Both the position numbers and the translations under genes were made by a program. The notes under the pieces are model-generated. The model was not told the DNA's origin. It made no database searches and saw nothing but the letters and a program-made list of their open reading frames with translations. Positions 62-16,482 of a DNA stretch of 29,459 nt are shown one piece after another (position 1 is the stretch's first letter; each line of letters opens with the position of its first letter). Source of the DNA: a virus; the UHGV virus genome UHGV-0320987. One strand, written 5' to 3'.

Positions 62-601
62 ATGAAGAAAGTTTTTCTTTGCGCCATCTTAGCCTCCTTA
101 AGCTATCCGGCTATCGCCTCATCATTGCAGGATCAACTCTCTGCTGTCGCAGAAGCGGAACAGCAAGGTAAAAATGAAGAGCAAAGGCAGCATGACGAAT
201 GGGTCGCGGAGCGCAACAGGGAAATCCAGCAAGAGAAGCAACGTCGCGCAAATGCCCAGGCCGCCGCTAACAAAAGAGCGGCAACGGCAGCGGCAAATAA
301 GAAAGCTCGTCAGGATAAACTGGACGCCGAAGCCTCTGCGGACAAAAAACGCGATCAAAGTTATGAAGATGAGCTACGCAGCTTAGAGATTCAGAAACAA
401 AAACTGGCGCTGGTGAAAGAAGAAGCCCGCGTTAAGCGAGAAAACGAATTTATCGATCAGGAACTGAAGCACAAAGCTGCGCAAACCGATGTGGTGCAAT
501 CTGAAGCTGACGCCAACAGAAATATGACTGAAGGCGGTCGCGATCTGATGAAAAGCGTGGGCAAAGCAGAAGAGAACAAATCGGACAGCTGGTTTAATTA
601 A
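62..601 (+). CDS. Secreted coiled-coil protein of unknown function (host or phage cargo)
   Basis: ATG at 62 preceded by AGGAGG; N-terminal signal peptide MKKVFLCAILASLSYPAIA; remainder K/E/Q/A-rich and predicted coiled coil; followed by a hairpin terminator. Confidence 0.6.
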   Translation: MKKVFLCAILASLSYPAIASSLQDQLSAVAEAEQQGKNEEQRQHDEWVAERNREIQQEKQRRANAQAAANKRAATAAANKKARQDKLDAEASADKKRDQSYEDELRSLEIQKQKLALVKEEARVKRENEFIDQELKHKAAQTDVVQSEADANRNMTEGGRDLMKSVGKAEENKSDSWFN

Positions 602-638
602 TCGATGTTAGTAACTTCAATCCTATAATTCTTGAAGA

Positions 639-672
639 TAAAAAACCCTCTGTAGTAACAGAGGGTTTTGTT
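639..672. terminator. Bidirectional intrinsic terminator between the secreted-protein gene and the end of the lysis operon
   Basis: 9-bp stem AACCCTCTG / CAGAGGGTT (644-652 / 659-667), loop TAGTAA; A-run upstream gives a strong U-tract for the minus strand and TTTTGTT follows on the plus strand. Confidence 0.7.
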
Positions 673-795
673 CATTCATAGTGCAGGGTCAAATCATTCC
701 CACTCAATTATTTACGACAACCATAACCAATTGAGTGATAACACTTTTACAAACCTCAACTTTTCCCGTACCGTTTTATATACCGTCACCGGAAA

Positions 796-1293
796 TCAGT
801 GCCACGATTTTTGCTTCTTCAGTGAATCGTATTGCTGCTCGCAGAATTCCCCTGCGATACGATACTTTTCAGCCTCAGCTGCTGTTGCGTTGTAAACTCG
901 GTTGCTTTCTTCAAGCATGTCGGCGAGCACACCGATGACCTTGCTGGCTGGCGTGCCAGGGGGGAAAGATCCGGTATAGTGTTCGGCGAGCCGCCTGGTT
1001 TTGTCAAGCTCGGCGCGCATGCTGTCAGCAGCGGAATTAGCATACTCAGCATCAGCACGCGCCGCATCGATACGGGATTGTGCTTCACGTTCAATTTGTG
1101 TTTTCTCCTGTTCACGCTGTGACCTTAACTTATCATCAGCCTGTTTCTGATCTTCCTTCGCCTGAGCATACCCGGCATCGTACTGGCGACTGCCGTGTGC
1201 ATTCCAGGCTACAACTCCTGATATGACCAGAACAGCAAGCATCGCCATGATAACCAACTGTTTCCAGTATGCTTTTGCGAATGCCCAGATCAT
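796..1293 (-). CDS. Rz: i-spanin (Rz-like), last gene of the lysis cassette
   Basis: N-terminal TM segment ([18 protein letters not shown]) followed by a charged coiled-coil periplasmic domain; start overlaps the endolysin stop (ATGA); contains an embedded +1-frame lipoprotein ORF. Confidence 0.65.
819..1115 (-). CDS. Rz1: o-spanin (Rz1-like outer-membrane lipoprotein) embedded in the +1 frame of Rz
   Basis: Lipobox LLTAC after a hydrophobic stretch, then a proline-rich mature region ([24 protein letters not shown]); lies entirely inside Rz. Start is either GTG at 1115 (AAGGT 8 nt upstream) or ATG at 1067. Confidence 0.55.
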   Translation of the reverse strand: MNRRKHKLNVKHNPVSMRRVLMLSMLIPLLTACAPSLTKPGGSPNTIPDLSPLARQPARSSVCSPTCLKKATEFTTQQQLRLKSIVSQGNSASSNTIH

Positions 1294-1919
1294 ACCGCCA
1301 GCACCTTACTGGCAGTGATGTATCGCGCGCGCCGGTCATCAATGCCGTTCCGGCCACCATTGATAAGCAGAGTTACACGTGCAATATCTCCGGTATACTT
1401 CATGCAGCCTTTGCTGGAGAAGAACCAGGCCGCGCTACGAGCCGCGTATTCGTCCTGTGCCAGCAGTTCAGGATTCTCCAGCAGGTCAACTTTCAGACCG
1501 TTTCCGCAGTCACGATAGTTATTCAAACCGGTAATCTGGATAAGCCCGCGCCCACGGTAATTCCAGCCATCGCCGGGAGCATTGTTACCCATGCGTTTGC
1601 TGTATACCAGATTTGCGATCGCGCGCTGGCGCTCAAGTGGCAATGGTGGTTCACCAGCGCGGCGCCCCAGTGCATTAGCCTGTCCCTGGGTGAGGCGTCC
1701 AGTCCGGACAAAGCTTGCCAGTCCGGTAACGCTGTAGTTGAAATTCTCCTGCAACCTGGTGAACCCCCCAGACTCATGCCCAACTTGAGCAATAAACATT
1801 GCCTGATCTTCTGCTTTGCTGATACCAAACTCTTTCATCGCAGAAGTTATATGCGAGAACCAGCGAGCGGCCAGCGCCTCGCTAATACCAGCAGCTCGCT
1901 GGAATTGTTTAATCTCCAT
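1290..1919 (-). CDS. Endolysin, glycoside hydrolase family 19 (chitinase-like)
   Basis: Motifs [12 protein letters not shown] and [20 protein letters not shown] typical of GH19 phage endolysins (recalled to be near-identical in SPN1S/epsilon15-type phages); flanked by holin and Rz. Confidence 0.85.
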
Positions 1920-2217
1920 GTTTAGACCTCGTTATTTTGAAAATCTGAACGACGTTACCGCGCGTTTTAATAACCGCAGCAAGCATGACAGCGTTGATAA
2001 TGACCTCAGATAAATCCACAGCCATTGGCGTGCGTAACCAGATTGCATAGACGACACGAACTGGAATACTGGCTGCAGCAACAATCAGGAAATAAGCAAG
2101 CCATCCCCCCCATCTTCGGTGTTGTGAACCGTTACGCCGGAAAGTGACAACGCGAATTGCTATGCCAGTACAAATAACTGCATTGGTGATAAGCAAAAAA
2201 AACTCATGCGTTACCAT
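1909..2217 (-). CDS. Holin-like small membrane protein
   Basis: 102 aa with about three hydrophobic TM segments and a basic C-terminal tail; GGGGAGAAAAG upstream of the ATG; immediately precedes the endolysin with overlaps. Confidence 0.55.
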
Positions 2218-2608
2218 CGTCTTTTCTCCCCGGAATTAACTCGCGTGGATTATCGGAACGGTGATAGAGCCAGATGCCAATTCGTACTGCGACGATTGCT
2301 GACACAAATGCGCCAGCAGAGAAAACAATCCCTTTCTCGAAAGAGTCCTGCGTGATGGTAGGTATCAGGCTGGCTATGCCGATAAGAATTGATGCTGCTG
2401 GTTTGTAGAAAAGAAGTCCGCAGAGAAAACTAAGCATCGACAAGAGTACGCGACGACGAATTGGGTACTCTACCGCAGAGGTAACAAAAATTACCGCGCC
2501 AGCCAAAGCTCCCAAAGCAACCTCAGGAGGCACTCCTGCTATCACCGCCGCCAGAGAACTCACGCTAAGCCACTGATTTAATGTTTCACTGGTTAGTTGA
2601 GCTGACAT
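2204..2608 (-). CDS. Holin/antiholin-like membrane protein
   Basis: About 134 aa with several TM segments. Start taken at ATG 2608 (GGTGGA 6 nt upstream); alternative ATG at 2620. Overlaps the next holin-like gene. Confidence 0.5.
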   Translation of the reverse strand: MSAQLTSETLNQWLSVSSLAAVIAGVPPEVALGALAGAVIFVTSAVEYPIRRRVLLSMLSFLCGLLFYKPAASILIGIASLIPTITQDSFEKGIVFSAGAFVSAIVAVRIGIWLYHRSDNPRELIPGRKDDGNA

Positions 2609-2829
2609 ATTTTCCACCATTTATATGCATAACGACCCCCTAAATAGTAAAGCATCATGCATGATAAACCATTTGTGGTTTTTTGTTACCCTGACATCGT
2701 CAATCCCCTGCCTTTGATGTCGATAATAAGGCTCGCCTTTTACATAACTCTGAACAGATTGCAGTACAGAAATGATTTAAAATATAGAGGCTTAGTTGAA
2801 TTCCGCGCCATCAAATGGCGCGGTAGCAG

Positions 2830-3114
2830 TCAAATATAGAAATAAACACCAAAACAAACAGTAACAGGAACAACAAAGTCAAACAGGCTTCCAACATCCC
2901 ATACGCGCGGATCAAAACCGCCCCACCACGGCATGTTCATACGCTTGCCATGCCCGAACATTTCAATCCAGCGATATTCTGCCTGGGTGTGTTCACGCGC
3001 AATGAAGAACGTACAACCAGCTATCGCTCCGTAAGCCCAGTTTCCGGTAAAAAGGCCAATCAGTACCTGCGCAGCCACAGCACAAAACGCATGAAGGAAA
3101 GGTGTTATATCCAT
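2830..3114 (-). CDS. Small hydrophobic membrane protein between tailspike and lysis genes (lysis-associated or lysogenic-conversion factor)
   Basis: 94 aa starting MDITPFLHAF with strong SD AAGGAG 6 nt upstream of ATG 3114; two hydrophobic segments. The longer ORF-track start at 3183 would overlap the tailspike and lacks an RBS. Confidence 0.5.
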   Translation of the reverse strand: MDITPFLHAFCAVAAQVLIGLFTGNWAYGAIAGCTFFIAREHTQAEYRWIEMFGHGKRMNMPWWGGFDPRVWDVGSLFDFVVPVTVCFGVYFYI

Positions 3115-3148
3115 TATCGCTCCTTTAACATAAGGATAAATAAACACT

Positions 3149-5464
3149 TCATAAAATAGATTTCGTCTTTGTAACAATAACATCTACAAAATCGCCTGCA
3201 GATATAGCTGATGGTACTGTATCTGCAAGAGTAATCTTTCCTGAAGAGATGCTTTGCACATCCAATAATTTATTTTCAATCCCATCCGTATATACCAATT
3301 TGATATCACTGAATGGAGGGTAATAAGTAATGGTCGCTTGGTATACATATATTTCACTGCCTGAAATTGATTTCACTACATACCTGCCCCTTACAAGATT
3401 AATTTTGAGTTCAGATAAATCTGTTTTATAACAGGTAATTCCTGAACCAATGTTAGCCATACTAATATCAGTATCACTATGATAAGTAATTGCTTTACCT
3501 TGCTTTAAAGTAAAAGTATTTTTACTTTTCCTTGGTAAGGATGTGCTATTTTTGTAATATCTACCAGTTAAGCATAGCCATGAAAATGCAGTATTCACTA
3601 CATTACCACCAGAATACACAGCTAAACGAATTGCACTAACTGGAACTCCTTCATTATTAATCCTGATCTTAATGGAAGAAATATTAGTAGCAGTTCCATA
3701 TCTATGGTTAGCAGAATCCCATTGCATCGAAGAAGTTATGGCTTCTGTTTGTGAGGTTATGACATTCCCGTCTCCATCTAATGCATACAGGTAAATGCGA
3801 AACGATGCCGTATCTGCTGAGAATGTAAACATATCACCATTTCTTACTGGTATATCTCCAGATTCCCATAACAACCCAAAATTCCGCATAAAAGCAAACT
3901 TAGAAGAAACTAGGTGACGGATATTATATAAACCATCTACATCTGTTTGATATGCTAATACACCAACTTCTCCATTGTTGGCACTGGATATAAATGGGGT
4001 GTTAGCATTTAAAGAAAACAATGTTACTTCATCGGATATATTTTCCTGAACATGAAATACTGCATTCCCCTTGCCATTATCAGTTACCTCTACATAAGTG
4101 TAAGGTGATGGATTGTATGGTTCATTTGTATAGTAAGGAGAACTTAACCATGAAGCCTCAATTGAGTTATTCCACGTATATTCACCAAAGTTAATTATCA
4201 ACTGTTGGTTAGTTGGGGATGATGGATATCGTTCAAAACGAAACCCGTAGAAGTAATTGTTATCACCTCTTTGAATATCAATTTTACCTGCCCCCTCCAT
4301 AGTTCCACCATAAAACTTATTGTGGTTATGATGATATGGATTATCAGCGAAAATGATATTATTCGTACGATTCAGATAAAAATAGTTTTCATTTATCCAT
4401 CCGTTCTCAACTCCAAGAAAATGAATTGTATCGACCTTTTTCAGGTTAAAGGTTGAGTATGCTATTGAATAATCCGTCGATGCCACCGAAGCATTATAAT
4501 TTGCATATAACTGTAAGTAGTCGCAACGCTCAATGTTTATATGCTGCCCTTTTGCCCCGATAATACGAATATCCGGTGTCGTTTCAGATGAAATACCAGA
4601 ATTTCTGATAATCGTTCCGAAGTTTTGTCTTGGGTTGTTAGGGTTTGATGCATTCCCGCCAAGCAATACCCCTATTCCTGAGTGGGATATGGTAAAAACA
4701 GCATTGGTCATTTCGAGGCTGACATTACGAAGATTTAATGTCTCCGTAATAATAAAATTACCTTCCGCTCGTAATGTTCTGGATGATTCTCGTGCATATT
4801 CTGCAGCCAGGATCAATGCAGATGTATCATCTGTTATACCATCGCCTTTTGCCCCAAAATCGCGAACACTAACGGTGTCTCTCATCTTATCCTGGAACGT
4901 TCGGTATACTGCTCCAGAACCATACTGAATAAACCAACCAAAACCACCAACAACCCCGGCGATTGCAGCATCGACATAATTACGCATTGAGCGATTATTT
5001 ACAGCGTCCTGCTCAAGTGATGGATCTGCAAGGTTAGAAATTTTGTTTTGCTTTGCATCGTAATATTTTGCAAGCAAAGATGGTTTCATCAATGCACGTC
5101 TGAACCACCCAAAACATTGCTGGATCAGCATCGTCAGGTAGTCAAAAGCATCTTCATGCACTTCGGGGAAAAATTTTCCCTGATTGCGAAGATCTGTCTC
5201 CTGCACTACATCAAGCACACGATCTATCGTAATTCGCCAGCCAGCAGCAAGCGGAGACGGCAGAACCACTGAACCGCCACTATAAGTGCCCGCCCCAGTT
5301 ACCGTATAACCGGTATCCAGAACCAATTCTGTTACGTTCCCGTTCAGGTCAGACACCTGAACAACCAGGTCTGATTTTCTGAAAATTCGAAAAGTATACG
5401 GAAACGATGTCGTAACGCCGTTACCTGTGTATTCGTTGTGGTCAACTTCGGTTGAGACCGTCAT
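3149..5464 (-). CDS. Tailspike (conserved particle-binding N-terminus, beta-helix polysaccharide depolymerase body)
   Basis: 771 aa; N-terminal MTVSTEVDHNEYTGNGVTTSFPYTF is the conserved tail-fibre/tailspike anchor motif; DFGAKGDGITDDTSAL is a pectate-lyase-like beta-helix signature; GGAG 7 nt upstream of the ATG; AT-rich, N/S/T/Y-rich body. Confidence 0.85.
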   Translation of the reverse strand: MTVSTEVDHNEYTGNGVTTSFPYTFRIFRKSDLVVQVSDLNGNVTELVLDTGYTVTGAGTYSGGSVVLPSPLAAGWRITIDRVLDVVQETDLRNQGKFFPEVHEDAFDYLTMLIQQCFGWFRRALMKPSLLAKYYDAKQNKISNLADPSLEQDAVNNRSMRNYVDAAIAGVVGGFGWFIQYGSGAVYRTFQDKMRDTVSVRDFGAKGDGITDDTSALILAAEYARESSRTLRAEGNFIITETLNLRNVSLEMTNAVFTISHSGIGVLLGGNASNPNNPRQNFGTIIRNSGISSETTPDIRIIGAKGQHINIERCDYLQLYANYNASVASTDYSIAYSTFNLKKVDTIHFLGVENGWINENYFYLNRTNNIIFADNPYHHNHNKFYGGTMEGAGKIDIQRGDNNYFYGFRFERYPSSPTNQQLIINFGEYTWNNSIEASWLSSPYYTNEPYNPSPYTYVEVTDNGKGNAVFHVQENISDEVTLFSLNANTPFISSANNGEVGVLAYQTDVDGLYNIRHLVSSKFAFMRNFGLLWESGDIPVRNGDMFTFSADTASFRIYLYALDGDGNVITSQTEAITSSMQWDSANHRYGTATNISSIKIRINNEGVPVSAIRLAVYSGGNVVNTAFSWLCLTGRYYKNSTSLPRKSKNTFTLKQGKAITYHSDTDISMANIGSGITCYKTDLSELKINLVRGRYVVKSISGSEIYVYQATITYYPPFSDIKLVYTDGIENKLLDVQSISSGKITLADTVPSAISAGDFVDVIVTKTKSIL

Positions 5465-5568
5465 GTTAAATCTCCAGATAGTCGCAGCACCCGTTGCGCC
5501 GCATATCTGGTTATTCTATTACCCAAAAAACCATATATGGATAGAAAGACTGTGAATATGAATAGATA

Positions 5569-5583
5569 TTACCTTTCAGGTAA
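5569..5583. promoter_or_regulatory. Operator-like palindrome TTACCTTTCAGGTAA (copy 1)
   Basis: Perfect TTACC-N5-GGTAA inverted repeat in the divergent tailspike / Ant-C-paralogue intergenic region; identical to the copy at 25214. Confidence 0.6.
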
Positions 5584-5620
5584 TTTGCAAAACGTGCTGG
5601 ATAGCAAACAAATTATTTGC

Positions 5621-5640
5621 TACTGTATAAATATACAGTT
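5621..5640 (+). promoter_or_regulatory. LexA (SOS) box overlapping the -10 region of the Ant-C-paralogue promoter
   Basis: TACTGTATAAATATACAGTT matches the E. coli consensus TACTGTATATATATACAGTA at 18/20 with perfect CTGT-N8-ACAG (5623-5638); 22 nt upstream of ATG 5661. Confidence 0.65.
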
Positions 5641-5660
5641 ATTGCATGGAGAAGATTAAG

Positions 5661-5918
5661 ATGCAGCAGTATCACTATCCACTGGAAGACGGATTTACCG
5701 AAAGGATTCACACGCCGGGAGGCGTCAGGTCACTGGTGGAGGGATCGCACTTGATGAAATTACTCCGGGATCTCGATAAGGATGGATTTAATGTCGATGG
5801 CCCACTTGCTGAACTGACTGCACTGATTAACTACGTCACCAGCTCACAGATGTCTATGCGGGATCTGCAAACACATCTCGACTATTGTGCCGAACAATTA
5901 CGAAAACAAACCACATAA
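5661..5918 (+). CDS. Free-standing paralogue of the antirepressor C-terminal domain (candidate SOS-inducible small antirepressor)
   Basis: About 45 percent identity over about 60 aa with the C-terminus of the antirepressor at 7066-7761 (IHTPGGV.SL.E.S.LM.LL..L..DG..V.G..AELT...Y......RD.QTH..Y). Start taken at ATG 5661 (GGAGAAG 8 nt upstream); ATG 5646 is the alternative. Confidence 0.6.
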   Translation: MQQYHYPLEDGFTERIHTPGGVRSLVEGSHLMKLLRDLDKDGFNVDGPLAELTALINYVTSSQMSMRDLQTHLDYCAEQLRKQTT

Positions 5919-5940
5919 AAAAAAGGCCGCAAGAGCGGCC
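5917..5940 (-). terminator. Intrinsic terminator of the zinc-ribbon gene (weaker in the plus direction)
   Basis: GGCCGC-AAGA-GCGGCC hairpin (5925-5940) overlapping the TAG stop; an 8-nt A-run on the plus strand gives a U8 tract for the minus-strand transcript. Confidence 0.7.
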
Positions 5941-6668
5941 TATCGTTTCGCTTTGTGCTCGTCCCAGCACGTTTTGCACCATGCCATTAAGCCGTCCGCA
6001 TTTTGATTATTAGAGTAAAAGCTGGTGCGTTTTCTGCGGACATTACAAATTGGGCACCACTTCATATGGCGTGTATTCTTTGGGCCATCGAGACACCTTG
6101 CACACCACTTAGTCAATCCATCTGGATTTTTTGACGATTTCCTGAATTTTTCATATGGAAGGTTTATTCTGCATCGCAAACACTGCTTACTACCACTTGA
6201 AACTCTGTTAGCTGATTCTTCTTGTGATGGCGATACAGAAGGTATTCTTGCTGGCTCAGATACTACCTGAGGAGCTTTTTTAGGTAACTGAGACGATATG
6301 TCATCACCTGGGAATCTGTCATGATATGCCGGACGCGTTGACACTCCAGGTGGAAGCTCTGCTGTAAATGGCTTTGGCTGAATCAGCGCCCTCTCTTTTG
6401 CTGACTCCTGTTGTTTATAATATGTCTGGATTACCGATATATCATAAGCAGGATGTACTGAAATATCCGGCGCATTACCTCCAGTTTTTTGAAACTGAGT
6501 GGAGGTGTGGTCTATCACCTGTGTACGATTAATCGTTATTTCTCCATCTTCGGTCTTTATCGTTTTGCGATGATTAACGACTGTGCGATCAGAGACCTTA
6601 GTCCTGTTCTGGTTGATAACGTAAATAATCACCGTAACAACACCAACAACTATCCAGAAAACTTCCAT
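5940..6668 (-). CDS. Membrane-anchored protein with a C-terminal double zinc-ribbon (four CxxC pairs); function unknown
   Basis: 242 aa; N-terminal TM helix (FWIVVGVVTVIIYVI); T/Q/P/S-rich linker; C-terminus CLRC..WCARC..WCPIC..WCKTC with an internal repeat (NPDGLTKWCARC / NADGLMAWCKTC); GAGGA 6 nt upstream of the ATG. Confidence 0.65.
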   Translation of the reverse strand: MEVFWIVVGVVTVIIYVINQNRTKVSDRTVVNHRKTIKTEDGEITINRTQVIDHTSTQFQKTGGNAPDISVHPAYDISVIQTYYKQQESAKERALIQPKPFTAELPPGVSTRPAYHDRFPGDDISSQLPKKAPQVVSEPARIPSVSPSQEESANRVSSGSKQCLRCRINLPYEKFRKSSKNPDGLTKWCARCLDGPKNTRHMKWCPICNVRRKRTSFYSNNQNADGLMAWCKTCWDEHKAKR

Positions 6669-6688
6669 TGCTTTTCCTCACAATAACA

Positions 6689-6703
6689 TTACCTTAAAGG
6701 TAA
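6689..6703. promoter_or_regulatory. Operator-like palindrome TTACCTTAAAGGTAA (copy 2)
   Basis: Part of a perfect 17-bp palindrome ATTACCTTAAAGGTAAT, 21 bp upstream of the zinc-ribbon gene start codon, i.e. over its core promoter. Confidence 0.6.
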
Positions 6704-6781
6704 TATCTTGCTTTCAGGTGATCAAGCGTTAAACGCAATCAACCAAATACGGTTGATTTTAATATTTCTCCGCGTTTATCA

Positions 6782-6796
6782 TTACCTTTTCGGTAA
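6782..6796. promoter_or_regulatory. Operator-like palindrome TTACCTTTTCGGTAA (copy 3)
   Basis: Perfect TTACC-N5-GGTAA in the zinc-ribbon / ant divergent region, 79 bp from copy 2. Confidence 0.55.
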
Positions 6797-6888
6797 ATTT
6801 ACATCGCACTCCTCTTGTGCCATAGTAATCGGGCACTGGCAAAATCCAGTGCCGGGATTGGCGTCCCGGATTACTAAAAGGCGCATTC

Positions 6889-6908
6889 ACCGCGCAAGCG
6901 GTTTTTTT
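6889..6908 (+). terminator. Terminator-like hairpin upstream of ant (possible attenuator or 3' end of a small RNA)
   Basis: ACCGC-GCAA-GCGGT (GNRA loop) followed by T6-7; preceded by further hairpins (GCACTGG..CCAGTGC 6833-6852) in a region without a credible ORF. Confidence 0.4.
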
Positions 6909-7065
6909 ATGCGTATAGCACGGCCACATTCGTATTATGGTGGGCTGTGTGGGGGCACCGAAAGGTGCGCCGGGTCCTTTTAGCCGGTTACGCCAACCCT
7001 GCACAGTTCACCACCAACCGATTGGCGTCGGTAGTGGTGATTGACCAGACTAAAAGGTAACCACT

Positions 7066-7761
7066 ATGACAGCTACAAAAAGCACGTCCATTTTTTCTTT
7101 CGAATCCCAAGCCGATATACGAGTAATCGTCATTAATGGTGAGCCATGGTTTATCGCTTCAGATGTTTGTCGGGCTATAGGCATAGCAAACCATCGAGAT
7201 GCTGTTCGAAAACTTGATGATGATGAGAAGGGCGTCGCTTCAACCGACACCCCTGGCGGTGAGCAAGAATCGATCATCATCTCCGAGTCAGGCCTCTACA
7301 CACTGATCCTCCGCTGCCGCGACGCAGTGACACCAGGCACTATCCCCTACCGCTTTCGTAAATGGGTTACAGGTGAGGTTCTTCCTCAGATCCGCCGCAC
7401 CGGAAGTTACATTAAAAACTCGCTCCCGCAGGAAGAACGCATAAAGATGGTTGCCGACCAGGTTGCAAACGCCACAGCATCAGCAGTGATGCAGGCAATG
7501 AAGATAGAGAACAAAACCTACAGCGCCCCACTGAAGCCCGGCTACCGTAGCCTGATTCATTCGCCGTCTGGTGTTCTCGGCCTGACGGAGAACTCACTGC
7601 TGATGAATCTGCTGAACCAGTTACAGGAAGACGGGCATGACGTATCGGGCGCGGCGGCGGAACTGACCACCATGTTCTGCTACATCGTTGGTGTGAGCAA
7701 ATGCCTGCGTGATATCCAGACTCACGCGGAGTACATCAACGACAAAGCAGGATTCTTCTGA
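7066..7761 (+). CDS. Phage antirepressor (Bro-N/KilA-N-like N-terminal domain plus Ant C-terminal domain)
   Basis: N-terminus IRVIVINGEPWFIASDVCRAIGIANHRDAVRKLDDDEKGV is the Bro-N/AntA-type domain; the C-terminal domain is paralogous to the 5661-5918 product; AAAGG about 9 nt upstream of the ATG. Confidence 0.75.
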   Translation: MTATKSTSIFSFESQADIRVIVINGEPWFIASDVCRAIGIANHRDAVRKLDDDEKGVASTDTPGGEQESIIISESGLYTLILRCRDAVTPGTIPYRFRKWVTGEVLPQIRRTGSYIKNSLPQEERIKMVADQVANATASAVMQAMKIENKTYSAPLKPGYRSLIHSPSGVLGLTENSLLMNLLNQLQEDGHDVSGAAAELTTMFCYIVGVSKCLRDIQTHAEYINDKAGFF

Positions 7762-7769
7762 CTAGCGGC

Positions 7770-7788
7770 GGCACAGGGATGTGCCTTT
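7770..7788 (+). terminator. Weak hairpin terminator after ant
   Basis: GGCACA-GGGA-TGTGCC followed by TTTAAATAATT (interrupted T-tract), 9 nt after the ant stop codon. Confidence 0.35.
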
Positions 7789-7934
7789 AAATAATTCTGT
7801 ACAGATTGCAGACTGTGGGTGAATAGCGTACTATTACCTTACGGGTGATCCATAGCGATTAGGCACCGATACAGGAGGAGCCCACATGAGAAAATTTGAC
7901 GAGTACGAAGGCGTTTAACATTCGGATAGTTCAT

Positions 7935-7949
7935 TTACCCTAATGGTAA
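7935..7949. promoter_or_regulatory. Operator-like palindrome TTACCCTAATGGTAA (copy 4)
   Basis: Perfect TTACC-N5-GGTAA 41 bp upstream of the 211-aa gene start; a degenerate copy TTACCTTACGGGTGA lies at 7834-7848. Confidence 0.55.
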
Positions 7950-7989
7950 ATCCCGCTTAAAGAAGCATCTATATATTATGAGGTGATGT

Positions 7990-8625
7990 ATGCCACAACA
8001 ACTGCTGAATCCAGCAAAGGTAACTGAGGTTTTCGCTCATCTGAACGAAACTCCAGACAACCGCGCCCTGTATTCAGAGTTAGTGAACGGCAACGATGTC
8101 ACATCTGATGTCAAAGGCGTTTCTCTGGCTCCTGGATACCGCGTTGTCCGTGTAGACGATCGTAAGAAAGGCGAGATTCCACAGGCGCACTTTGAACTGT
8201 CATTGATAAATGACCTCACCGAAGAGGTAGTGTATTACAATCGTGTCATTATCCAGCCTGACAGCTATCTTAACTGCCGTCCTGTCACGCAGATATTGGT
8301 ATGGAGAACCCAGAAGCCTAAGCATCGTGCTGTGCTTCATGATTTCGCCGGCATCATCTTCATGAACTACCTCTTGGAACGGTACGATATCATCGTGTCT
8401 GATCGCAACCAGACTCATGAAGGCATGTCGTTCTGGCAGGCTCGCATGTATGACGCACTGGAACTTGGCCTCCACCTCTATGGTTACGACATGATGACAT
8501 GCGAGCTGATAGAGATGAATAACGAGGAAGAGCTTGAGAAAGGTGAAACCTGGTTATGGGGTGATGCGGAAAACTTCCAAAACAGATTGGCCATAATTTC
8601 AAAGCATAAGCTGCCAATAAAATAG
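7990..8625 (+). CDS. Hypothetical cytoplasmic protein (orphan cargo gene)
   Basis: 211 aa, no TM or signal peptide and no motif I recognise; GAGGTGA 5 nt upstream of the ATG; own operator copy upstream and own terminator downstream. Confidence 0.65.
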   Translation: MPQQLLNPAKVTEVFAHLNETPDNRALYSELVNGNDVTSDVKGVSLAPGYRVVRVDDRKKGEIPQAHFELSLINDLTEEVVYYNRVIIQPDSYLNCRPVTQILVWRTQKPKHRAVLHDFAGIIFMNYLLERYDIIVSDRNQTHEGMSFWQARMYDALELGLHLYGYDMMTCELIEMNNEEELEKGETWLWGDAENFQNRLAIISKHKLPIK

Positions 8626-8631
8626 TTCTTT

Positions 8632-8655
8632 AAGCCCGCGGCGCGGGCTTTTTTG
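8632..8655 (+). terminator. Intrinsic terminator after the 211-aa gene
   Basis: AAGCCCG-CGGCG-CGGGCTT hairpin followed by TTTTTT (8649-8654). Confidence 0.75.
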
Positions 8656-8685
8656 TGGACGAAACAAAAGTCAGTGCTACACTCA

Positions 8686-8713
8686 TTGACGCCACATTGA
8701 GGTGGCTTATAGA
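8686..8713 (+). promoter_or_regulatory. Candidate sigma70 promoter for the small secreted peptide gene
   Basis: TTGACG (-35, 8686-8691), 16-bp spacer, TATAGA (-10, 8708-8713); the predicted start site is only a few nt before ATG 8727, implying a very short leader. Confidence 0.4.
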
Positions 8714-8726
8714 TGGAAATGTCACA

Positions 8727-8888
8727 ATGAAAAAAGCATTTGCTGCACTGTTCGTTTTGTTGTCTCTGGTAGCTTCAACTCAGGCCTTTGCCGGTCGTTG
8801 TCAGCACGACAGCGATACTGCCGCTGACGGCTCCCGCTGCGGTGGGCGTTCTGCGGATTCCCGCCCGGGCGGCGGTGGCATTCGTTAA
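8727..8888 (+). CDS. Small secreted Cys/Gly-rich peptide (53-aa precursor)
   Basis: Classic Sec signal peptide MKKAFAALFVLLSLVASTQAFA with AxA cleavage site; about 31-aa mature part with two Cys and a Gly-rich tail; terminator directly after the stop. The ORF-track start at 8655 is a GTG inside the upstream terminator. Confidence 0.45.
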   Translation: MKKAFAALFVLLSLVASTQAFAGRCQHDSDTAADGSRCGGRSADSRPGGGGIR

Positions 8889-8916
8889 AAACAAGGCCGC
8901 GAAAGCGGCCTGTTTG
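8887..8916 (-). terminator. Intrinsic terminator ending the ejection-protein operon (also usable by the plus-strand peptide gene)
   Basis: AGGCCGC-GAAA-GCGGCCT hairpin (8894-8911); the minus strand reads the hairpin followed by TGTTTTTAA. Confidence 0.7.
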
Positions 8917-8917
8917 A

Positions 8918-9769
8918 TCACTGTGCAGTTTTCGCTGATCGATTTTCAGCTCTAAATTCAAGAACCGTTTCAATATTTCTTTCCTTCAGCATATCAATAA
9001 CATTTTTATTCATTTGACTATCACTGGTTAATAACTGGTAAACGTCGCTTCTCTCTTTATCAGAGTTTTCTTTAACAGCTGCTTTGCATGCCAAATGCTT
9101 ATTGAAATTTTCTACATCGCTAGTACAGGAATTTACGGCTGCTGATGAAATATCAGACGCTGAAGAAACACCATCATCCAAACGTTTTATAGCATTTTCT
9201 ATACATGAGTTAAGGGAATAAACGACAACTGAGCGATACCCTTCAGACGCACACCATTCTAAATTTCTTGAAGGATCGAGTGGTTTTACTTCGCTGGATT
9301 GAATTAACTTGTCAAAAACTGACTTATATTCAATCTGTTTTTTATCTATAGCCCATACTTCAGTAGCTGATTTATAATTCCCCGTATGCCTATTAACATC
9401 AAATCCATGTTTTATAAGCAAATCTGCCCATGAAAGATTTATTGATTCATTGTTATGAGGCCATTTTCCTGTCAGAACCGCCCCCATAGACCCCATATAT
9501 CCGCCATATGATGGTATAGCACCATGGCTCAGTAACTTCTCAGCAACCACAGGGCAATTAATTACATAAGAGGCGTAAAGCCCATTCCATAAAGCCCCTC
9601 TATAGTAATCGCCACGATTAGGTTCTTTTAAGTCGATAGCCTTTGATAATTGTTCACACGTTTTGCATGCATCAAAGTTATCCTTATTGCATTGCAATGA
9701 ACTGGCAGCTGTAGGATTTACAGAGACTATTGAAAGCACTATGCCAAAAAACAAATTTATTTTTTTCAT
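8918..9769 (-). CDS. Secreted protein of unknown function appended to the ejection-protein operon (possibly ankyrin-like repeats)
   Basis: 283 aa; signal peptide MKKINLFFGIVLSIVSVNPTAAS; AT-rich relative to neighbours; ATG 2 nt after the upstream stop; segments VAEKLLSHGAIPS and ADLLIKHGFDVNRHT resemble ankyrin-repeat helices (weak, from memory). Confidence 0.65.
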   Translation of the reverse strand: MKKINLFFGIVLSIVSVNPTAASSLQCNKDNFDACKTCEQLSKAIDLKEPNRGDYYRGALWNGLYASYVINCPVVAEKLLSHGAIPSYGGYMGSMGAVLTGKWPHNNESINLSWADLLIKHGFDVNRHTGNYKSATEVWAIDKKQIEYKSVFDKLIQSSEVKPLDPSRNLEWCASEGYRSVVVYSLNSCIENAIKRLDDGVSSASDISSAAVNSCTSDVENFNKHLACKAAVKENSDKERSDVYQLLTSDSQMNKNVIDMLKERNIETVLEFRAENRSAKTAQ

Positions 9770-9770
9770 C

Positions 9771-12700
9771 CTATTTCATCTGCTCTTCAACTTTATTTAG
9801 TAATGGTGATATCGCCCACAGGTTCTGAAAAGGTAGCATTTTACGGACCGCGTGGGTTTGCTGGCTGTCAAATTCTCCGTTAAGTACACCATTCGCAACC
9901 GTCGCGGCATCACCGCCAAGATCAAAGGTAGGACCAAGTAAAGCACCAATAGCATTACGACTCTGAAACCTTGATACCGGAGGCGCACCAAACATCGCGC
10001 CAAGACCAAACCTACCACCGCTTATGTTCTCAACGGTATTCAGCGGCTCAGAGAGCCAGCCAAGCATTCCGCCCCGGTCGATCCCCTCTTTCACAAGGTT
10101 ATTCCAGCTGTAGTCAATATCGCGACCGCTTAACTTCTGTTTCATCATATAGACCATTGAGCCAAGCGCAATCGTGCCAAGCGCACCAAGATAGAATGCA
10201 GCATCGCCCTGCTGGATACCAGATACCAGCACCCTGTTATGCTGTGCGAAGATAAACGTTTTGAACTGCGTGATCATCTTCCAGCCTTCTTTACTAAAAA
10301 ACAGCGGTGTATCACCTACGCCAGGCGTTACAATCACTGAGTCTACATCTTTCAGCACTGCAGACTGGAAAATCTCTCTAGCGAAACGGTCATCCCACAG
10401 ATGACTATGCCCGGTTAACAGCCCGTCCATATCCTCTCCGTGCTTCCCGAATTGCTCCCCGATTCGGCGCAGAACATCTTCATTGATGCCGACCTGTGCC
10501 ATCTTCCGCATTTCACTTTTGGAGAGCGTGCCACCAGCAGAAACTTGGCGAGCCGCGTCAAGTATCCTCGACTGCACTATCATCCCAGACCATGATTTAA
10601 GTGCGCTGTTCCACTGATTCATCAGCGTCCAGTTACCGAATTTCTGCGTCATCCAGTTCAGGCCTCGCTCAGCGGCGCTTCTCCGGCTATATGGGTCAGT
10701 AAGATCCGCTATAGCCTTTGTACGCGTAGACAGGACATAATCAAGCCCAACGGCCATTTCTCGCAAATCCCTGGTTGCAATCTTCACTGAGTCCATATTT
10801 TTAAGCATGCTTACCATTGGTCCGAGAGATTTTCTCAGGCCATGCTGCATCATCGGTCGCATCAGATCAGTTGCAGCGGAGACGGTCATTCCACCAAGCA
10901 AACGGAGGAAGTTAATATTCCTAGCAACTCGCCCGGCACGAACAAAGAAACTGCGTGGATCTTGAGGTGCACCGTAAGTACCAAGCAGTCGATCACGCAT
11001 AGCCGTAATATCCCTAATATCAGCCTCCCGTTGCTTCTCAAGAACTGCACGTCGTTTAGGTGTTTTAGCCTCTTTTATTAGCCGGGTATATTCCTCACTA
11101 ACCTGACGGATTTGCTCCCCCATATCTTTACGGCCAAACTGCGCAGTCAGCTCAATTTCTGGTGCCACCTGCCGGAGATAACTTTCCATGATGTAGTTAA
11201 CATCTGATTCAAGAAAATCTTCTATACGCTCATCAGGAATAAGCAGCGTTCTGCTTTTAGTGAAACCAGCCCGACCAACGAGTCTCTCTGGGATAATATC
11301 GGCTGGTACAAGCCCGGAAGGTGCGCCTATTATTTTATTCACGATCTCGTCAGCAGCGTCCTCTGCTTCCTCTCGGGATAGAGGCTCCATCTGCTTCAGT
11401 GCTCGTTCGCGGCTTGCATTCAGCCTTGTGGTTGAATTTGCCCGTTTTTGCAGTCGGCGAAGCTCAGAACGATATTTCCGTGGATTATCCAACAACTCCA
11501 TATGGCGCTGATAGACAGGAAGCTCACTCTTTGCCTGCGCTATATCATCAAGGCGTGTTTTAAGGTCAGAGCTTTCTTTCATCATTCTTGCCTGAAGTTT
11601 TTCTGATGAAGTCTCGGCCAACTCTTTTTCTATTCTTGTAAGACGCGCCTGTGTGTCAGTCTCCTGAGATATAAGCTTATTTCGTTTATCCAGTTCTTCC
11701 ATGAGTAGAATTTTTTTACCAGACCATTTCTCCGCTTCAGCGATTTCACTAGCGAGAGCATCAGCGCGCGGTGCCGATTCCTCTGCAGTTTTTAGCAATG
11801 AATTTATCCTTTCAATTCGCTGACCTGCTTTGTCAGCACCTTTGGCACTAATCCCTTGTATCCAGTTGGCAATTCGCCCTCTGAATTCAGTGCGGTCGGA
11901 AAGTATCTTATCGAACTTATAAATGCGGGGAAGATAACTTTTCGCCGTCACGACATCGATATCCTTAGGAAGGATCCCCAGTTCCTGCATACGGGCTTTT
12001 GTGGTCTCGAAAATGGGGCGGATTCTGGCGGCTGCTTGTGAAACCTCAGGAATATCACTCTGATCACCACGGCGCATAGCCATGCCAACAGCTTCATTGA
12101 AATCAATAAAGTTCATCCTCTTCACGCCGCGGGCGCTAACAGATTTGCTGTACTGCTGGTAAGCATCACGAGTGGCTTCCATCTGCTTATAAAGCATGGC
12201 GTCGTATTGCTTAATCTTAGTCTCGACTGCCGTAAACGTAGCCAACCCCTCATCATTTTTGGCGAAGAAATAGTTATTTTCGGCAAGCTGCTGGTTAATC
12301 TGACGGGAGACAAGAGATGGTGATTGCGCCAAGCGGCCAGCAGGAGTGACACTCAACGTTTTGTTAGCAAGTCCAAGTCCAGCGAGCTGTTCCTGATCGA
12401 GTGTGGTATTGAAAACCTGAGCTGCACCAATGCTTTGAGGAGAATCCATACCTCGCAAATGATTACCTACTGAGTTAACCACTGCCTCGCGCGCGCCAGG
12501 TCCAGCAAGTAGCTGTGCACCAGCACCAAGGATCCCACCAACGAGAGCATCAACAACAACGTTCGATACGCTCTCCATCGGTGAGCGAGCTTCCTGAGTG
12601 GCCTGTAATGCGGCCTCTGAAGCAACACTGCCAGCAGCATTCGCCAGGGCAAAACGCCCGGCTGTTTCTGCAATACGACCGCCACGAACGACAGCGCCGA

Positions 12701-13160: not shown

Positions 13161-15907
13161 TATTTGCCCCCTGCGTATATATTGCTCGGAAGGTAATTGG
13201 CTGAACCATAACCGAATGGTTTGGTCAGATCTGGAGGAGTATATCCATCTTTATTGCTGAACTGCGGCAGCGGATTGCCTTCTCTCCGCACTCTAGCCTC
13301 ATCAACACGCTGTTGCTGGAACTGAATGGTTTGCCTGTACATTGGAGATGTCAGCTGATCCGGCTTGAAACGAACAGGGAGACCATTTTCTCCAATATAA
13401 TTTCTCGGTTCTATCGCTCCGTTTGCGTCAGGCTGTAAAACCATAACAGCATAACTCCTATCCCTTGCCGTAAGGCCATCAGAAACAAGTATTAAGTCCG
13501 TATCACTGCGAGGACCGCCAAAGGATTTTGATTTAAGCTCGCGTTTTTCCTGCTCCCACTGCCCCTGTATCCAGTTACCAGCACCATTATTTACTCCGTA
13601 CAATGCCTCAGGTGCATACTTCATAACCTCTGCTTTGCCATTAACCGTAGAAACTCCCCAAGTGGTTCTGATCATGGCATTGGTCATTTTCTCAGCCTGT
13701 TCTGCATCGCCACCTGTCTGTACAAAGTTAGCATCGTAAATTGTCTGGTAATCTCGCTGATAGGCCGCATTTGATTTTCCTGGATCGGTAATATCCGGAG
13801 ACCACGAACCAAAGGAAGTCAGACTGCTGGCGTTATTTTGTGCAGCAGTTGCCCTCGCCGCGACATATTTTTTGTCTCGCATGGCAGTGGAAAGCATCTG
13901 TTTCATTCGGTCATCCTGTTGGAACACCTGGCTGTAAGCCATATCAACAGCCTTATCCTCCGGCACGCCAGCGCGGGAATAATCGTAAACCTTGCCGTAA
14001 AATGCCATCGTACTTTTATCAAGTGTTGCCGCTGCCGCCGGATTATTATCGAATAACTGACCGTAGAATTTTGCCATCGGGACAACCAGCGCAGGATCTC
14101 TTGATGTTGCTCCACTGTTAAGCATTGTTTTAACCTGAGTTGGTATCATGCCGCTTTTAGTTGTGACGGTGACCAGTGTATTGATGCTCTGCGGATCAGA
14201 TATGGAAAACGAAGGCGCGATATCCTGCGCGAAATAACGGTCTACCGCTGCCTGATTGTTTTTGTCGTTCGGGTCCAGCGGGAAGTTATTTTGCATTGAA
14301 GACACGAACCTGTTTCTTCCCTGCTGAATCTCCCACTCCCTATCCATCTCTTTAAATTTGGCCTGCATTTTCTCCCAGCGTTGCTGGTTAGCTGCAAATC
14401 CAGGAGCGTTTGGATCCTGTGGACGTAAACGTTCAAGAATGTCTTGTCGTCCTTCTGGAGTGAGGTCTTTAGCGGCACCAATGACACCTCCATATTGTAT
14501 CTGCGCCTGCATATCCTTCCACTTCATAGCGCCAATGCGCGGACCATTGGCCCGGATAAAATCGTCCTCAGAAGGTAACTGCTCAGGTTTCAATCCTTCA
14601 TCAAGGGCTGAATATGCATCTTTAACTACGGTGCTAAGCTGGTCCGCATACTGCTGGCGGTACTGATTTCTCAGCTCATTAGCCTGCCTCAATGCCTGTA
14701 TTTGCATTTGAGGGCTCATAGCATCAAATGCCGCATTGCCCGTATAACGCTTAGGTGAATCAAGGTTAGTTAGACCAAGGGCTGCCGAGATACCAGTTTC
14801 AAGCTGTTCGGTGCTATAAGGCATACTGCCATTTTCGTGTTTAATAATCCCAGCACATAAAGCAGCTAGTGTCTTTGGGTTAGAGATATCAAGCTGATCA
14901 TTCTCCCCAACACCAAGCTCACCACACAATGCCCTAATATAAGCATCAGTATTATTACCATCACTAGCCGGAGCATAGCGATTAACAATCTCGCTAACGG
15001 TGTCATAGCCTTGACGCTGGTAAGACAACATATTTTTACCCAACGCGCGGATTCCATGCTCAGGGGTAGCAAACGTTGCAAAACGTCCATCGCTACCGAT
15101 CTGACCTTCCCACGGGTTAGATTTGCTCGCTTCAATATTACCAGGGTTATTATTACGTAACCCACGAGCATCCAATGAATTACCATGTGACATTGCACGA
15201 CTCACACCGTCAAGATCCCCTGGCTCTCCATTAACCTGAAGAAACTCGTTGTATTTTTGAGCGATATTTCCTATCCATGCTTGCTGCCCCATTTGTTCCT
15301 TGAGCTGAGTTTTCTGCTGAACACGCCACTCATCAGGAAGCCCATGCGCATCAGCGTATTGATCAATAGATTCAAATCGCTGCTTGGCTAAATCGACAAA
15401 TGCTTGGTTATCGCTATATAGCCCCGCAGACTGAGTGACAGCCAATGCATTTCCTGACAAATACGTTTGATCTTGGAATTGCTGAAACTGCCCAACTTCA
15501 TATCGACGTGCCTGATTGTAATAAGACTGCATAGACTGCTGGAGTTGAAAGGATAATTTATTCCTTTCCTCACTTTCAGGAATTGAGCCTAATAATGCCT
15601 GAGCCCTTTCCTGCATATTTTTCATAACAGCGTCACTCTGACCAAGAGCGTTTTTACCCTGTTTAGAAATCAGCCCATTTTCAGGGTTGTTAATCTGGTC
15701 ATCTGCAAATTGGTTAAATTGCAGTAACGCCTCCTGGGCCATAGCAACATTCGCTTTCTGCCTGGCTTCACCATATGCCACCGCATACTGATCTGCGACA
15801 TTCGCCAGCACCTGACCTGCTTGAGGAACATCGAAGGTCTGAAAACCACCGGTTTGCACACCACGACTTTGCACCTGGCGTCCGGATGTAGTAGGAACAA
15901 CAGGCAT
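13160..15907 (-). CDS. Internal virion / ejection protein (T7 gp15-like by position)
   Basis: 915 aa Q/A/N-rich protein between the gp14-like and gp16-like genes, with TGATG/TAATG overlaps on both sides. Confidence 0.55.
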   Translation of the reverse strand: MPVVPTTSGRQVQSRGVQTGGFQTFDVPQAGQVLANVADQYAVAYGEARQKANVAMAQEALLQFNQFADDQINNPENGLISKQGKNALGQSDAVMKNMQERAQALLGSIPESEERNKLSFQLQQSMQSYYNQARRYEVGQFQQFQDQTYLSGNALAVTQSAGLYSDNQAFVDLAKQRFESIDQYADAHGLPDEWRVQQKTQLKEQMGQQAWIGNIAQKYNEFLQVNGEPGDLDGVSRAMSHGNSLDARGLRNNNPGNIEASKSNPWEGQIGSDGRFATFATPEHGIRALGKNMLSYQRQGYDTVSEIVNRYAPASDGNNTDAYIRALCGELGVGENDQLDISNPKTLAALCAGIIKHENGSMPYSTEQLETGISAALGLTNLDSPKRYTGNAAFDAMSPQMQIQALRQANELRNQYRQQYADQLSTVVKDAYSALDEGLKPEQLPSEDDFIRANGPRIGAMKWKDMQAQIQYGGVIGAAKDLTPEGRQDILERLRPQDPNAPGFAANQQRWEKMQAKFKEMDREWEIQQGRNRFVSSMQNNFPLDPNDKNNQAAVDRYFAQDIAPSFSISDPQSINTLVTVTTKSGMIPTQVKTMLNSGATSRDPALVVPMAKFYGQLFDNNPAAAATLDKSTMAFYGKVYDYSRAGVPEDKAVDMAYSQVFQQDDRMKQMLSTAMRDKKYVAARATAAQNNASSLTSFGSWSPDITDPGKSNAAYQRDYQTIYDANFVQTGGDAEQAEKMTNAMIRTTWGVSTVNGKAEVMKYAPEALYGVNNGAGNWIQGQWEQEKRELKSKSFGGPRSDTDLILVSDGLTARDRSYAVMVLQPDANGAIEPRNYIGENGLPVRFKPDQLTSPMYRQTIQFQQQRVDEARVRREGNPLPQFSNKDGYTPPDLTKPFGYGSANYLPSNIYAGGK

Positions 15908-16482
15908 CAGTAACCTCCTATTTTGAATCGGGAGTCAGAATTCATAAAACCTGAGTTAGATAACATTGGCGTCCCACCACTAGATGTACTTCCTTTAGAG
16001 AACGGACTCCACGTCCCACCAAACATCTGGTACGCACCGTATGCCTTCAGAGGCGCAGTGAGCAATGTTGTTGCTGCTCCCACATTCCCCTGTTTACGGG
16101 CTGAACTGGCTTCTGCTTTATAGTTGGCAGCCTGAACCTGATAACCGTAAGCCTCGCGTTGCGCGTTATTCACCGTCGTCAGAGAATCAAGAGCGCCAAA
16201 CTGGGCAGTGTCGCCAAATATATCCAGCGCGTTACCTGTAGATAAATCAGCGCCGGTAGCCCCCATTGTCGCCGCCTGTGTACCAAGCCGCTGTCGGGTC
16301 TCTCTGCGCCGTTGCTCAGCTTCAGCGTTACCTCTGTTTATTGCATCATTTGCCTGAGCTGTGGCTATATCTGCGTTCGCTTCTGCAACCTTCGAGGCAT
16401 ACTTTCCCTGTTGGTACTGGGTGTATGCCTGAATGCCACTCATGGCGAGCATTGCGCCACCAGCAATAACCGGATCGCACAT
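15907..16482 (-). CDS. Internal virion protein (T7 gp14-like by position)
   Basis: 191 aa, Ala/Gly/Gln-rich with hydrophobic N-terminus; translationally coupled to its neighbours. Confidence 0.5.
   Translation of the reverse strand: MCDPVIAGGAMLAMSGIQAYTQYQQGKYASKVAEANADIATAQANDAINRGNAEAEQRRRETRQRLGTQAATMGATGADLSTGNALDIFGDTAQFGALDSLTTVNNAQREAYGYQVQAANYKAEASSARKQGNVGAATTLLTAPLKAYGAYQMFGGTWSPFSKGSTSSGGTPMLSNSGFMNSDSRFKIGGY

Follow-up and report, generated by a model that had tools for sequence, protein, structure and literature searches.

We analysed a 29,459-nucleotide stretch of the virus genome UHGV-0320987 (hereafter the window, to which coordinates refer unless another record is named) and, within it, the gene at 7990..8625 on the + strand, which encodes a protein of 211 amino acids (aa). 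The gene is an optional cargo, or moron: it is variably present, bracketed by a promoter and a terminator, and located between conserved genes of an epsilon15-like prophage. Its product is predicted to adopt a divergent GNAT fold, and the DNA in front of it carries operators that appear to belong to the immunity repressor of the prophage. The gene, its signals and the two genes that anchor the slot are as follows.

7066..7761, + strand: Bro-N antirepressor gene, left neighbour and anchor of the slot (Pfam Bro-N, E = 2.3e-21; PHROG anti-repressor Ant families)
7806..7848, + strand: putative slot promoter TTGCAG-17-TACTAT (hexamers at 7806-7811 and 7829-7834) with an abutting one-mismatch operator TTACCTTACGGGTGA (7834-7848)
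7886..7918, + strand: leader mini-open reading frame (mini-ORF) of 10 codons, MRKFDEYEGV, with a strong AGGAGG Shine-Dalgarno sequence at 7873-7878; identical in the slot with DUF4760 cargo (L047)
7935-7949, no strand: exact candidate immunity-repressor operator TTACCCTAATGGTAA, a TTACC-N5-GGTAA palindrome inside cargo-specific DNA, ending 41 nucleotides before the ATG
7990..8625, + strand: cargo gene of the PHROG 1349 family, encoding an acidic soluble protein with a predicted divergent GNAT (acyl-coenzyme A (acyl-CoA) N-acyltransferase-like) fold
8632..8656, + strand: intrinsic terminator and right boundary of the slot, formed by an 8-pair stem (8632-8650, including 6 G-C pairs) and a TTTTTT run
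8727..8888, + strand: gene for a conserved 53-aa membrane-associated protein, right neighbour and anchor of the slot (phrog_14503, E = 2.3e-40)

The reading frame was confirmed in the window. It runs through 211 codons from an ATG to a TAG, a GAGG Shine-Dalgarno core (7980-7983) lies 6 nucleotides before the ATG, and the N-terminal residues MP are common to every homologue. The terminator hairpin has a folding energy of -16.1 kcal/mol (z = -2.2). The highest Kyte-Doolittle mean over 19 residues is 1.07, which indicates that there is no membrane or signal segment; together with an isoelectric point of 5.3, this makes a soluble, cytoplasmic protein plausible. The original prediction, made from the letters alone, had described a 211-aa cytoplasmic protein at these positions, with an operator copy 41 bp upstream and a strong terminator downstream, and our results agree with it on each of these points. 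It had also called both signals private to the gene, and in this respect the data below lead to a different view.

A hypothetical gene of E. coli O166:H15 JNE070796 has the same sequence (100% identity), and in that genome the counterpart of the window is a prophage between yfgI and guaA. The gene order of this prophage (terminase, portal, capsid, tail, internal virion proteins, accessory region, then tailspike and lysis genes) is that of the epsilon15/phiV10/TL-2011b-type podoviruses (genus Uetakevirus), and its position matches the guaA attachment site reported for the genus (PMC9782041).

When the region 7700-8900 was compared with phages by megablast, the flanks alone matched. Of 5426 complete E. 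coli genomes, ~470 contained a match to the left flank, whereas the 211-aa gene was found in 13. This distribution across related prophages, proposed as a check when the gene was first described as stand-alone cargo, bears that description out: the flanks are common to many epsilon15-like prophages and phages, and the gene is rare. The eleven slots that we sampled contain at least eight different cargos. Besides the 211-aa gene, we saw DUF4760, YafO modules, a 108-aa gene with DUF2335, and pairs of genes for proteins of 55 and 146 aa, 62 and 110 aa, 69 and 251 aa, and 69 and 287 or 288 aa, the last with or without an additional 167-aa gene. In phage TL-2011b, the slot carries a 59-aa gene and a YafO-family toxin gene. 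Pfam matches among the sampled cargos were confined to YafO, DUF4760 and DUF2335. At the equivalent of 7850-8630 in the E. coli prophages L047-L051 and L068-L072, most alternative cargos are small-plus-large two-gene modules (55+146, 62+110, 69+287, 69+251 and 108+182 aa, and 59 aa with YafO), which have a toxin-antitoxin-like or defence-like layout and are uncharacterised.

The presence of YafO-family toxin modules and toxin-antitoxin-like pairs in the same slot favours a reading in which the 211-aa protein is by itself an anti-phage defence. It would block other phages through superinfection exclusion or through abortive infection, one of the options raised in the original prediction, either in the lysogen or as an infection begins; a component of the phage or of translation could, for instance, be acetylated. 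Comparison with PADLOC speaks against this reading, since there was no match for any sampled slot cargo, nor for the 211-aa protein when it was searched against the PADLOC-DB v2.0 hidden Markov models (HMMs) at E <= 1 (the library dates from 2023).

The slot itself appears to be conserved irrespective of its cargo. On the right side, homology with four slots that carry other cargos restarts at the terminator hairpin and runs into the gene for the 53-aa protein (WP_000708858.1), which lies to the right of most sampled slots. A terminator private to the 211-aa gene is ruled out by this alignment. On the left side, all slots have a putative promoter of the TTGCAG-17-TACTAT form, the final T of which doubles as the first T of the operator. 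The slots of L049 and L050 share the same TACTAT-TTACC arrangement with an exact operator, which differs by one mismatch in the copy at 7834-7848. Between the window and the DUF4760 slot, homology continues through the promoter and the mini-ORF leader and ends at ~7931. We take the left-hand promoter-operator and the right-hand terminator to be parts of a conserved expression slot. The promoter at 7806-7834, recognised because the same arrangement occurs in the equivalent slots of other prophages, is likely to drive it. The mini-ORF at 7886-7918 may be a leader peptide or an attenuator. In the DUF4760 variant of the slot, a hairpin with a short T-run lies between the leader mini-ORF and the cargo.

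The operator is not restricted to the slot either. TTACC-N5-GGTAA occurs at 11 sites in the window when one mismatch is allowed, compared to 0.55 expected, and none of 100 shuffles reached 11; site starts include 5569, 6689, 6782, 7834, 7935, 25214, 25834, 28773 and 28791. The complete phage TL-2011b has 14 sites (0.98 expected), with pairs on either side of the helix-turn-helix (HTH) repressor gene gp10 and more at the promoter regions of the integrase, replication, terminase, portal, antirepressor and tailspike genes. The rest of the source-like E. coli prophage contains 12 sites in 25 kb (0.49 expected), including the pairs 15291/15339 and 16051/16113 around an HTH gene (coding sequence 15409-15993). 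In the E. coli record NZ_AP041805, the HTH repressor is WP_000836290.1. Promoters that are good enough to be recognised have the operator across their -10 hexamer and start site. Besides surrounding the repressor gene, operators were seen at almost all intergenic promoter regions of the prophage, among them those before the terminase, portal, tailspike and integrase genes.

The palindrome is best read as the operator of the prophage immunity repressor. Because the motif flanks the repressor gene and recurs at promoter regions, the copy at 7935 would be a regulon member, one of ~20 in the prophage, and not a private element. Judged by its operator, which is the same as the sites flanking the repressor gene, the 211-aa gene belongs to the immunity-repressor regulon of a Uetakevirus prophage and would be repressed in vivo. 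We considered whether the operator might be intrinsic to the gene family or a host-factor site, and both can be ruled out: it is absent upstream of the homologues at all 43 chromosomal, Xenorhabdus and Photorhabdus loci, and it flanks the prophage repressor gene.

In other phages, the operator accompanies the gene. Exact copies lie 39-73 nucleotides 5' of homologues in podoviral prophages of Klebsiella, Serratia and Dickeya, in a Yersinia myovirus prophage and in phage LLS (42053-42067 in LLS (L062), 6929-6943 in L054, 6916-6930 in L052, and at -53 from the gene start in L058 and L060). The lambdoid phage LLS has a single exact operator in 42.9 kb, away from cI/cro, and its homologue is 30% identical. 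The Klebsiella copy has a good promoter, TTGCAC-18-TAATAT, directly next to the operator, and its downstream leader is homologous to 7950-7989 of the window. Since the exact operator accompanies homologues in unrelated phages, these data suggest that promoter, operator and gene have moved between phages as a unit. The cassette would be repressed in hosts of the cognate repressor and would be constitutive elsewhere, in heteroimmune phages.

What the cargo encodes is less apparent from its sequence. The protein matches PHROG 1349 over its full length (E = 2.9e-78; residues 1-209 against positions 10-210 of the 210 in the profile), a family annotated as 'unknown function', and matches neither Pfam (E <= 10) nor NCBIfam. 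Tblastn against 50,697 phage records gave a single distant match, LLS gene 57, and no match when a distant family member was used as the query. The family comprises 94 clusters at 90% identity in Enterobacterales and 922 representatives at 50% identity (E <= 0.001), nearly all of ~200 aa, and has members in Pseudomonas and Azotobacter as well. No informative name or Pfam domain was found among its members, which are present in the databases merely as 'hypothetical' or 'phage protein', and a literature search by accession and PHROG identifier retrieved no paper. A 'DUF4123' label, attached to an Enterobacter relative by one source, was disregarded, as no Pfam scan reproduced it. The sequence searches did not reveal homology to a structural or housekeeping phage protein, which the original prediction had named as the result that would tell against it. 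Its statement that the protein has no recognisable motif stands at the sequence level, but does not extend to the predicted fold.

Structure prediction, another of the proposed checks, yielded a confident GNAT-like model. The AlphaFold2 model, built on an alignment of 34 sequences, has a predicted local distance difference test (pLDDT) score of 84.7 and a predicted template modelling (pTM) score of 0.80, and contains the mixed alpha/beta core that is characteristic of GNATs. Foldseek searches of the PDB returned GNATs exclusively (E ~1e-4). In a viral fold library, the best matches were uncharacterised phage proteins of ~190 aa, at template modelling (TM) scores of up to 0.72, followed by annotated acyl-CoA N-acyltransferases and acetyltransferases. 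The closest solved GNATs are the C-terminal acetyl-CoA-binding domain of Rv1916/ICL2, NatD/Naa40, Hat1 and AAC(2')-Ia. As a prediction, the GNAT fold is well supported.

The top PDB matches, AAC(2')-Ia and ArsN, with MccE and EctA also present, bring to mind a GNAT that modifies or detoxifies small molecules, as a fitness or lysogenic-conversion factor comparable to AAC(2'), MccE or the phosphinothricin acetyltransferases. This is doubtful in view of the conservation within the family, which is mainly aromatic, and we found no family-level similarity to the resistance GNATs. That the nearest structural matches are not toxins is a point against the defence reading as well.

Conservation was assessed over a set of 136 representatives, obtained by clustering at 50% identity. 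It singles out N24, Y82, Q101, W105, R106, F124, D138, T142, G145, F148, W149, A156, Y164, W190, G191, I203 and S204, the polar residues Y82, Q101, R106, D138, T142 and Y164 among them. The densest conserved block, 138-DRNQTHEGMSFW-149, follows a strand (134-136) and extends into a helix that it opens (143-158); D138 is conserved in 87%, T142 in 74%, G145 in 91% and W149 in 98%. By its geometry, this strand-loop-helix is a candidate for the GNAT CoA-pyrophosphate loop, and the only local profile alignment to a canonical GNAT family, itself non-significant, places 141-QTHEGMS-147 on motif A (QGxGLG). The same conservation can be read in another way, namely that the protein is a non-catalytic GNAT-like scaffold, which binds and neutralises a host protein or signalling nucleotide as a counter-defence sponge or inhibitor, or regulates the lysis-lysogeny decision with the adjacent antirepressor. 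The invariant residues are tryptophans and there is no obvious acid/base pair, as expected for a scaffold; the conservation of D138, T142, G145, R106 and Y164 in a pattern like that of a ligand-binding or active site argues against one.

The genomic contexts of the family are diverse: homologues occur as single genes, in moron positions of prophages of podo-, myo-, sipho- and P2-like types and at many chromosomal sites. The 43 loci fall into 24 synteny groups with no conserved neighbour; there was no enriched Pfam family among 100 flanking proteins and no conserved partner, whether antitoxin or regulator, across these groups. An XRE-type HTH gene adjoins the homologue in 7 loci only, in at least one of them on the opposite strand. 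Relatives with 78-95% identity reside in epsilon15-like prophages of Dickeya, Serratia and Klebsiella, in the same position as in the window, between the internal-virion-protein genes and the tailspike gene or the prophage end. More distant relatives are found embedded as a moron in the tail operon of a Yersinia myovirus prophage, 3' of antirepressor genes in Xenorhabdus prophages, after the lysis cassette in phage LLS, and, in Pseudomonas, directly beside the portal gene Q (gpQ) of P2-like prophages. In P2, the old/tin defence hotspot occupies this spot next to gpQ (PMC9122126). Others are chromosomal singletons, for instance between ihfA and btuE in Erwinia amylovora, or beside LuxR-solo, type VI secretion system and carotenoid genes in Photorhabdus.

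These contexts bear on each of the alternatives. A defence function agrees with the positions typical of protective morons (next to gpQ, after the LLS lysis cassette, in the Yersinia tail operon) and with the many intact solitary chromosomal copies, of which some genomes carry two, but not with the lack of a conserved antitoxin-like partner. A detoxifying enzyme would fit the enrichment of the family in Xenorhabdus, Photorhabdus, Erwinia, Serratia and Dickeya; the sampled contexts in Xenorhabdus, Photorhabdus and Erwinia are mostly single genes amid housekeeping neighbours. Against it, none of the 24 contexts has a link to a biosynthetic cluster. For a scaffold that regulates together with an antirepressor, it counts that the gene recurs beside antirepressors (Bro-N, P22_AR_N, ORF6N, Rha) in unrelated prophages. 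This adjacency may, however, reflect shared accessory regions, and the chromosomal singletons do not have an antirepressor neighbour.

The Photorhabdus laumondii singleton (L003/L004) is flanked on both sides by repeat copies (5793-5975, 7065-7337 and 7551-7763), seen as spurious ORFs sharing '...SQQRGNLKDNGYI...'. There are hints that the repeat is an element like a miniature inverted-repeat transposable element (MITE), which might account for the spread of a single gene to many places in chromosomes.

In the window, the antirepressor next to the slot appears to be under antisense control. Rfam matches were found at the following positions.

6833-6908, + strand: isrK (77.9 bits)
6933-7018, + strand: C4 antisense RNA (77.7 bits)
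6820-6872, + strand: C4 a1/b1 targets (45.1 bits, just under the gathering score)

The isrK and C4 matches lie directly 5' of the Bro-N gene and 3' of the operators at 6689 and 6782. Together, isrK, C4 and the Bro-N gene look like a counterpart of the P1 immI module, with an antirepressor under antisense control, in a podoviral prophage. ORF4 of phage vB_EcoP_ZX5, which is homologous to the Bro-N gene, acts as an antirepressor (PMC9782041). Expression of the 211-aa gene would be timed with that of the antirepressor, which is again compatible with a scaffold. The gene at 5646-5918 (+) encodes a stand-alone 90-aa protein that corresponds by homology to the Bro-N antirepressor's C-terminal domain (phrog_450, which also matches residues 148-229 of the 7066-7761 product). 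An operator of its own lies at 5569, and a hairpin resembling a terminator comes after the stop.

The anatomy of the gene, its regulon membership by sequence, its cargo status, its fold and the lack of a partner gene are documented above. They suggest a tentative model, in which our confidence falls somewhat short of even: the 211-aa protein would be a divergent GNAT-fold cargo of a repressor-controlled slot, which acts on derepression as an acyl-CoA-using factor in phage-host conflict. The slot would provide a weak promoter overlapped by an immunity-repressor operator, a short leader and a terminator, and the cargo would contribute a second, exact operator of its own. Because the promoter carries immunity-repressor operators, the gene would be silent in the stable lysogen. 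It would come on along with the C4/IsrK-controlled antirepressor once the repressor is missing or has been inactivated, upon induction or in a fresh infection. The protein would then bind acyl-CoA and acylate a macromolecule or metabolite of the host or of a rival phage, working alone, as a conflict factor during lytic development. CoA binding, catalysis, target and biological direction of the protein are what we infer. Since activity is expected when the prophage is derepressed, the timing would place the protein with host-takeover or counter-defence factors.

Several observations weigh against this model. On the side of the fold, the TM-scores of the PDB matches are merely 0.35-0.46, and hhalign against a canonical GNAT family alignment (PF00583/PF13508) gave a probability of 0.4%; profile-profile comparisons with a canonical GNAT and with its family alignment, the one GNAT family tried, were not significant. 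Searches of PDB sequences returned noise only, whether the query was the single sequence or a profile of 44 members, and no Pfam domain was found in 44 diverse relatives that were scanned or in 120 with precomputed domains. The spacing of the candidate CoA loop, Q-x-x-x-G-x-S, is one residue longer than Q/R-x-x-G-x-G/A. The most invariant residues are the three tryptophans W105, W149 and W190, and this invariance could equally fit a binding scaffold or a pseudoenzyme. On the side of expression, TTGCAG-17-TACTAT is weak by consensus, and a consensus scan for sigma-70 promoters over 7000-9800 called none. Finally, most homologues with 50-66% identity are intact solitary chromosomal genes without an operator (in Erwinia, Xenorhabdus and Photorhabdus), and both these singletons and the P2 old/tin position of the Pseudomonas homologues are easier to reconcile with a host-protective gene that is active in the lysogen than with a lytic-phase factor.

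Protective exclusion or abortive infection is therefore the main rival, which we nevertheless consider unlikely. Operators precede the gene in this prophage and in the Klebsiella, Serratia and Dickeya relatives, and a defence gene controlled in this way should be off in the lysogen; repressor control thus argues against constitutive expression in this lysogen. The same control would deny the lysogen any benefit from a detoxifying enzyme, an explanation to which we assign very little weight. The non-catalytic scaffold seems to us quite improbable, if less so than the detoxifying enzyme.

The model of a repressor-controlled conflict factor can be extended to the family as a whole. PHROG 1349 and its 900-plus cluster relatives might be a new, widespread single-gene effector of phage-bacterium conflict. 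The members would be GNAT-fold enzymes, non-canonical in their CoA loop, with a specific macromolecule of a phage or of the host as the target of acylation; the modification would serve to keep out rival phages or to disarm a host defence. Promoter, operator and gene would be shuttled as one cassette among the podo-, myo-, sipho- and P2-like prophages. We regard this extension as rather unlikely. If the protein is an active acyltransferase in conflict, a large unannotated family (922 clusters, from Enterobacterales to Pseudomonas) would join the few acetylation-based phage weapons. The slot is also a compact hunting ground for conflict genes, given that its left flank is present in ~9% of complete E. 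coli genomes and that many of its cargos are uncharacterised. Repressor control would mean that some prophage morons are not expressed in the lysogen. The most instructive results are in our view the architecture of the slot and the travelling operator.

Two further regions of the window appear to be variable.

5940-6668, - strand: gene for a 242-aa phrog_6762 protein whose C-terminus resembles the Lar-like restriction-alleviation and the endonuclease VII families
8918-9769, - strand: gene for a 283-aa phrog_6118 protein (unknown function), flanked by the gene for the 53-aa membrane protein and by the internal-virion-protein operon

The first looks like a second variable slot, since a YafO toxin gene and a 147-aa gene take its place in some related prophages (L051, L068). 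The C-terminus of the 242-aa protein was read as a zinc ribbon and its start as a hydrophobic N-terminus. The second looks like a third variable position, because related prophages (L047-L050, L069-L072) carry different small genes there. The prophage also encodes a tRNA-Arg (anticodon TCT) at 25551-25627 (+), opposite in strand to the structural genes; it lies between the terminase region and the portal-side genes, with the operators 25214 and 25834 at ~200-340 nucleotides on either side. The offset between the window and NZ_AP041805, the E. coli record with 100% identity, changes by 1 nucleotide between yfgI (window 62-601) and the 211-aa gene, which points to a near-identical separate genome or to a 1-bp indel within 601-7990.

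Compared with the GNAT superfamily, the 211-aa protein is an outlier, with 6-14% identity, no Pfam or HMM match (and the low hhalign probability given above), a non-canonical motif A spacing, ~90 extra residues and TM-scores below 0.5. It also differs from the GNAT toxins TacT, AtaT, KacT and ItaT. It is ~40 aa longer and has no sequence similarity to them, and the gene lacks an adjacent ribbon-helix-helix (RHH)/TacA-type antitoxin or any other conserved partner: upstream there is the 10-codon mini-ORF alone, and no RHH (DUF1778/TacA) antitoxin is conserved in the 24 contexts. Closer parallels come from phages. AcrVA5 is a GNAT anti-CRISPR acetyltransferase. Rac of phiKMV-like phages is a GNAT that the phage uses against its host (PMC7552054). 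Both are small accessory GNAT-fold proteins encoded by single phage genes, expressed in infection and acting on a host macromolecule, and the 211-aa protein would, by prediction, be similar. Unlike them, its family is found mostly in temperate phages and chromosomes, and a sequence relationship was not detected.

With respect to its location, the slot resembles the immI regions of P22 and P1 and the cos-proximal old/tin hotspot of P2 (PMC9122126), in that variable cargo lies between conserved anchors with a promoter and a terminator. A difference is that PADLOC recognised no known defence system among the cargos sampled here. As in P1 immI, the slot adjoins an antirepressor that appears to be under the control of a C4-type antisense RNA. 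The dispersed layout of the operators in the prophage resembles the P1 C1 regulon and is closer to it than to an OL/OR pair of the lambda type. Unlike constitutive morons, the cargo has a promoter that carries a putative immunity-repressor operator, as would be expected in such a dispersed P1 C1-like regulon.
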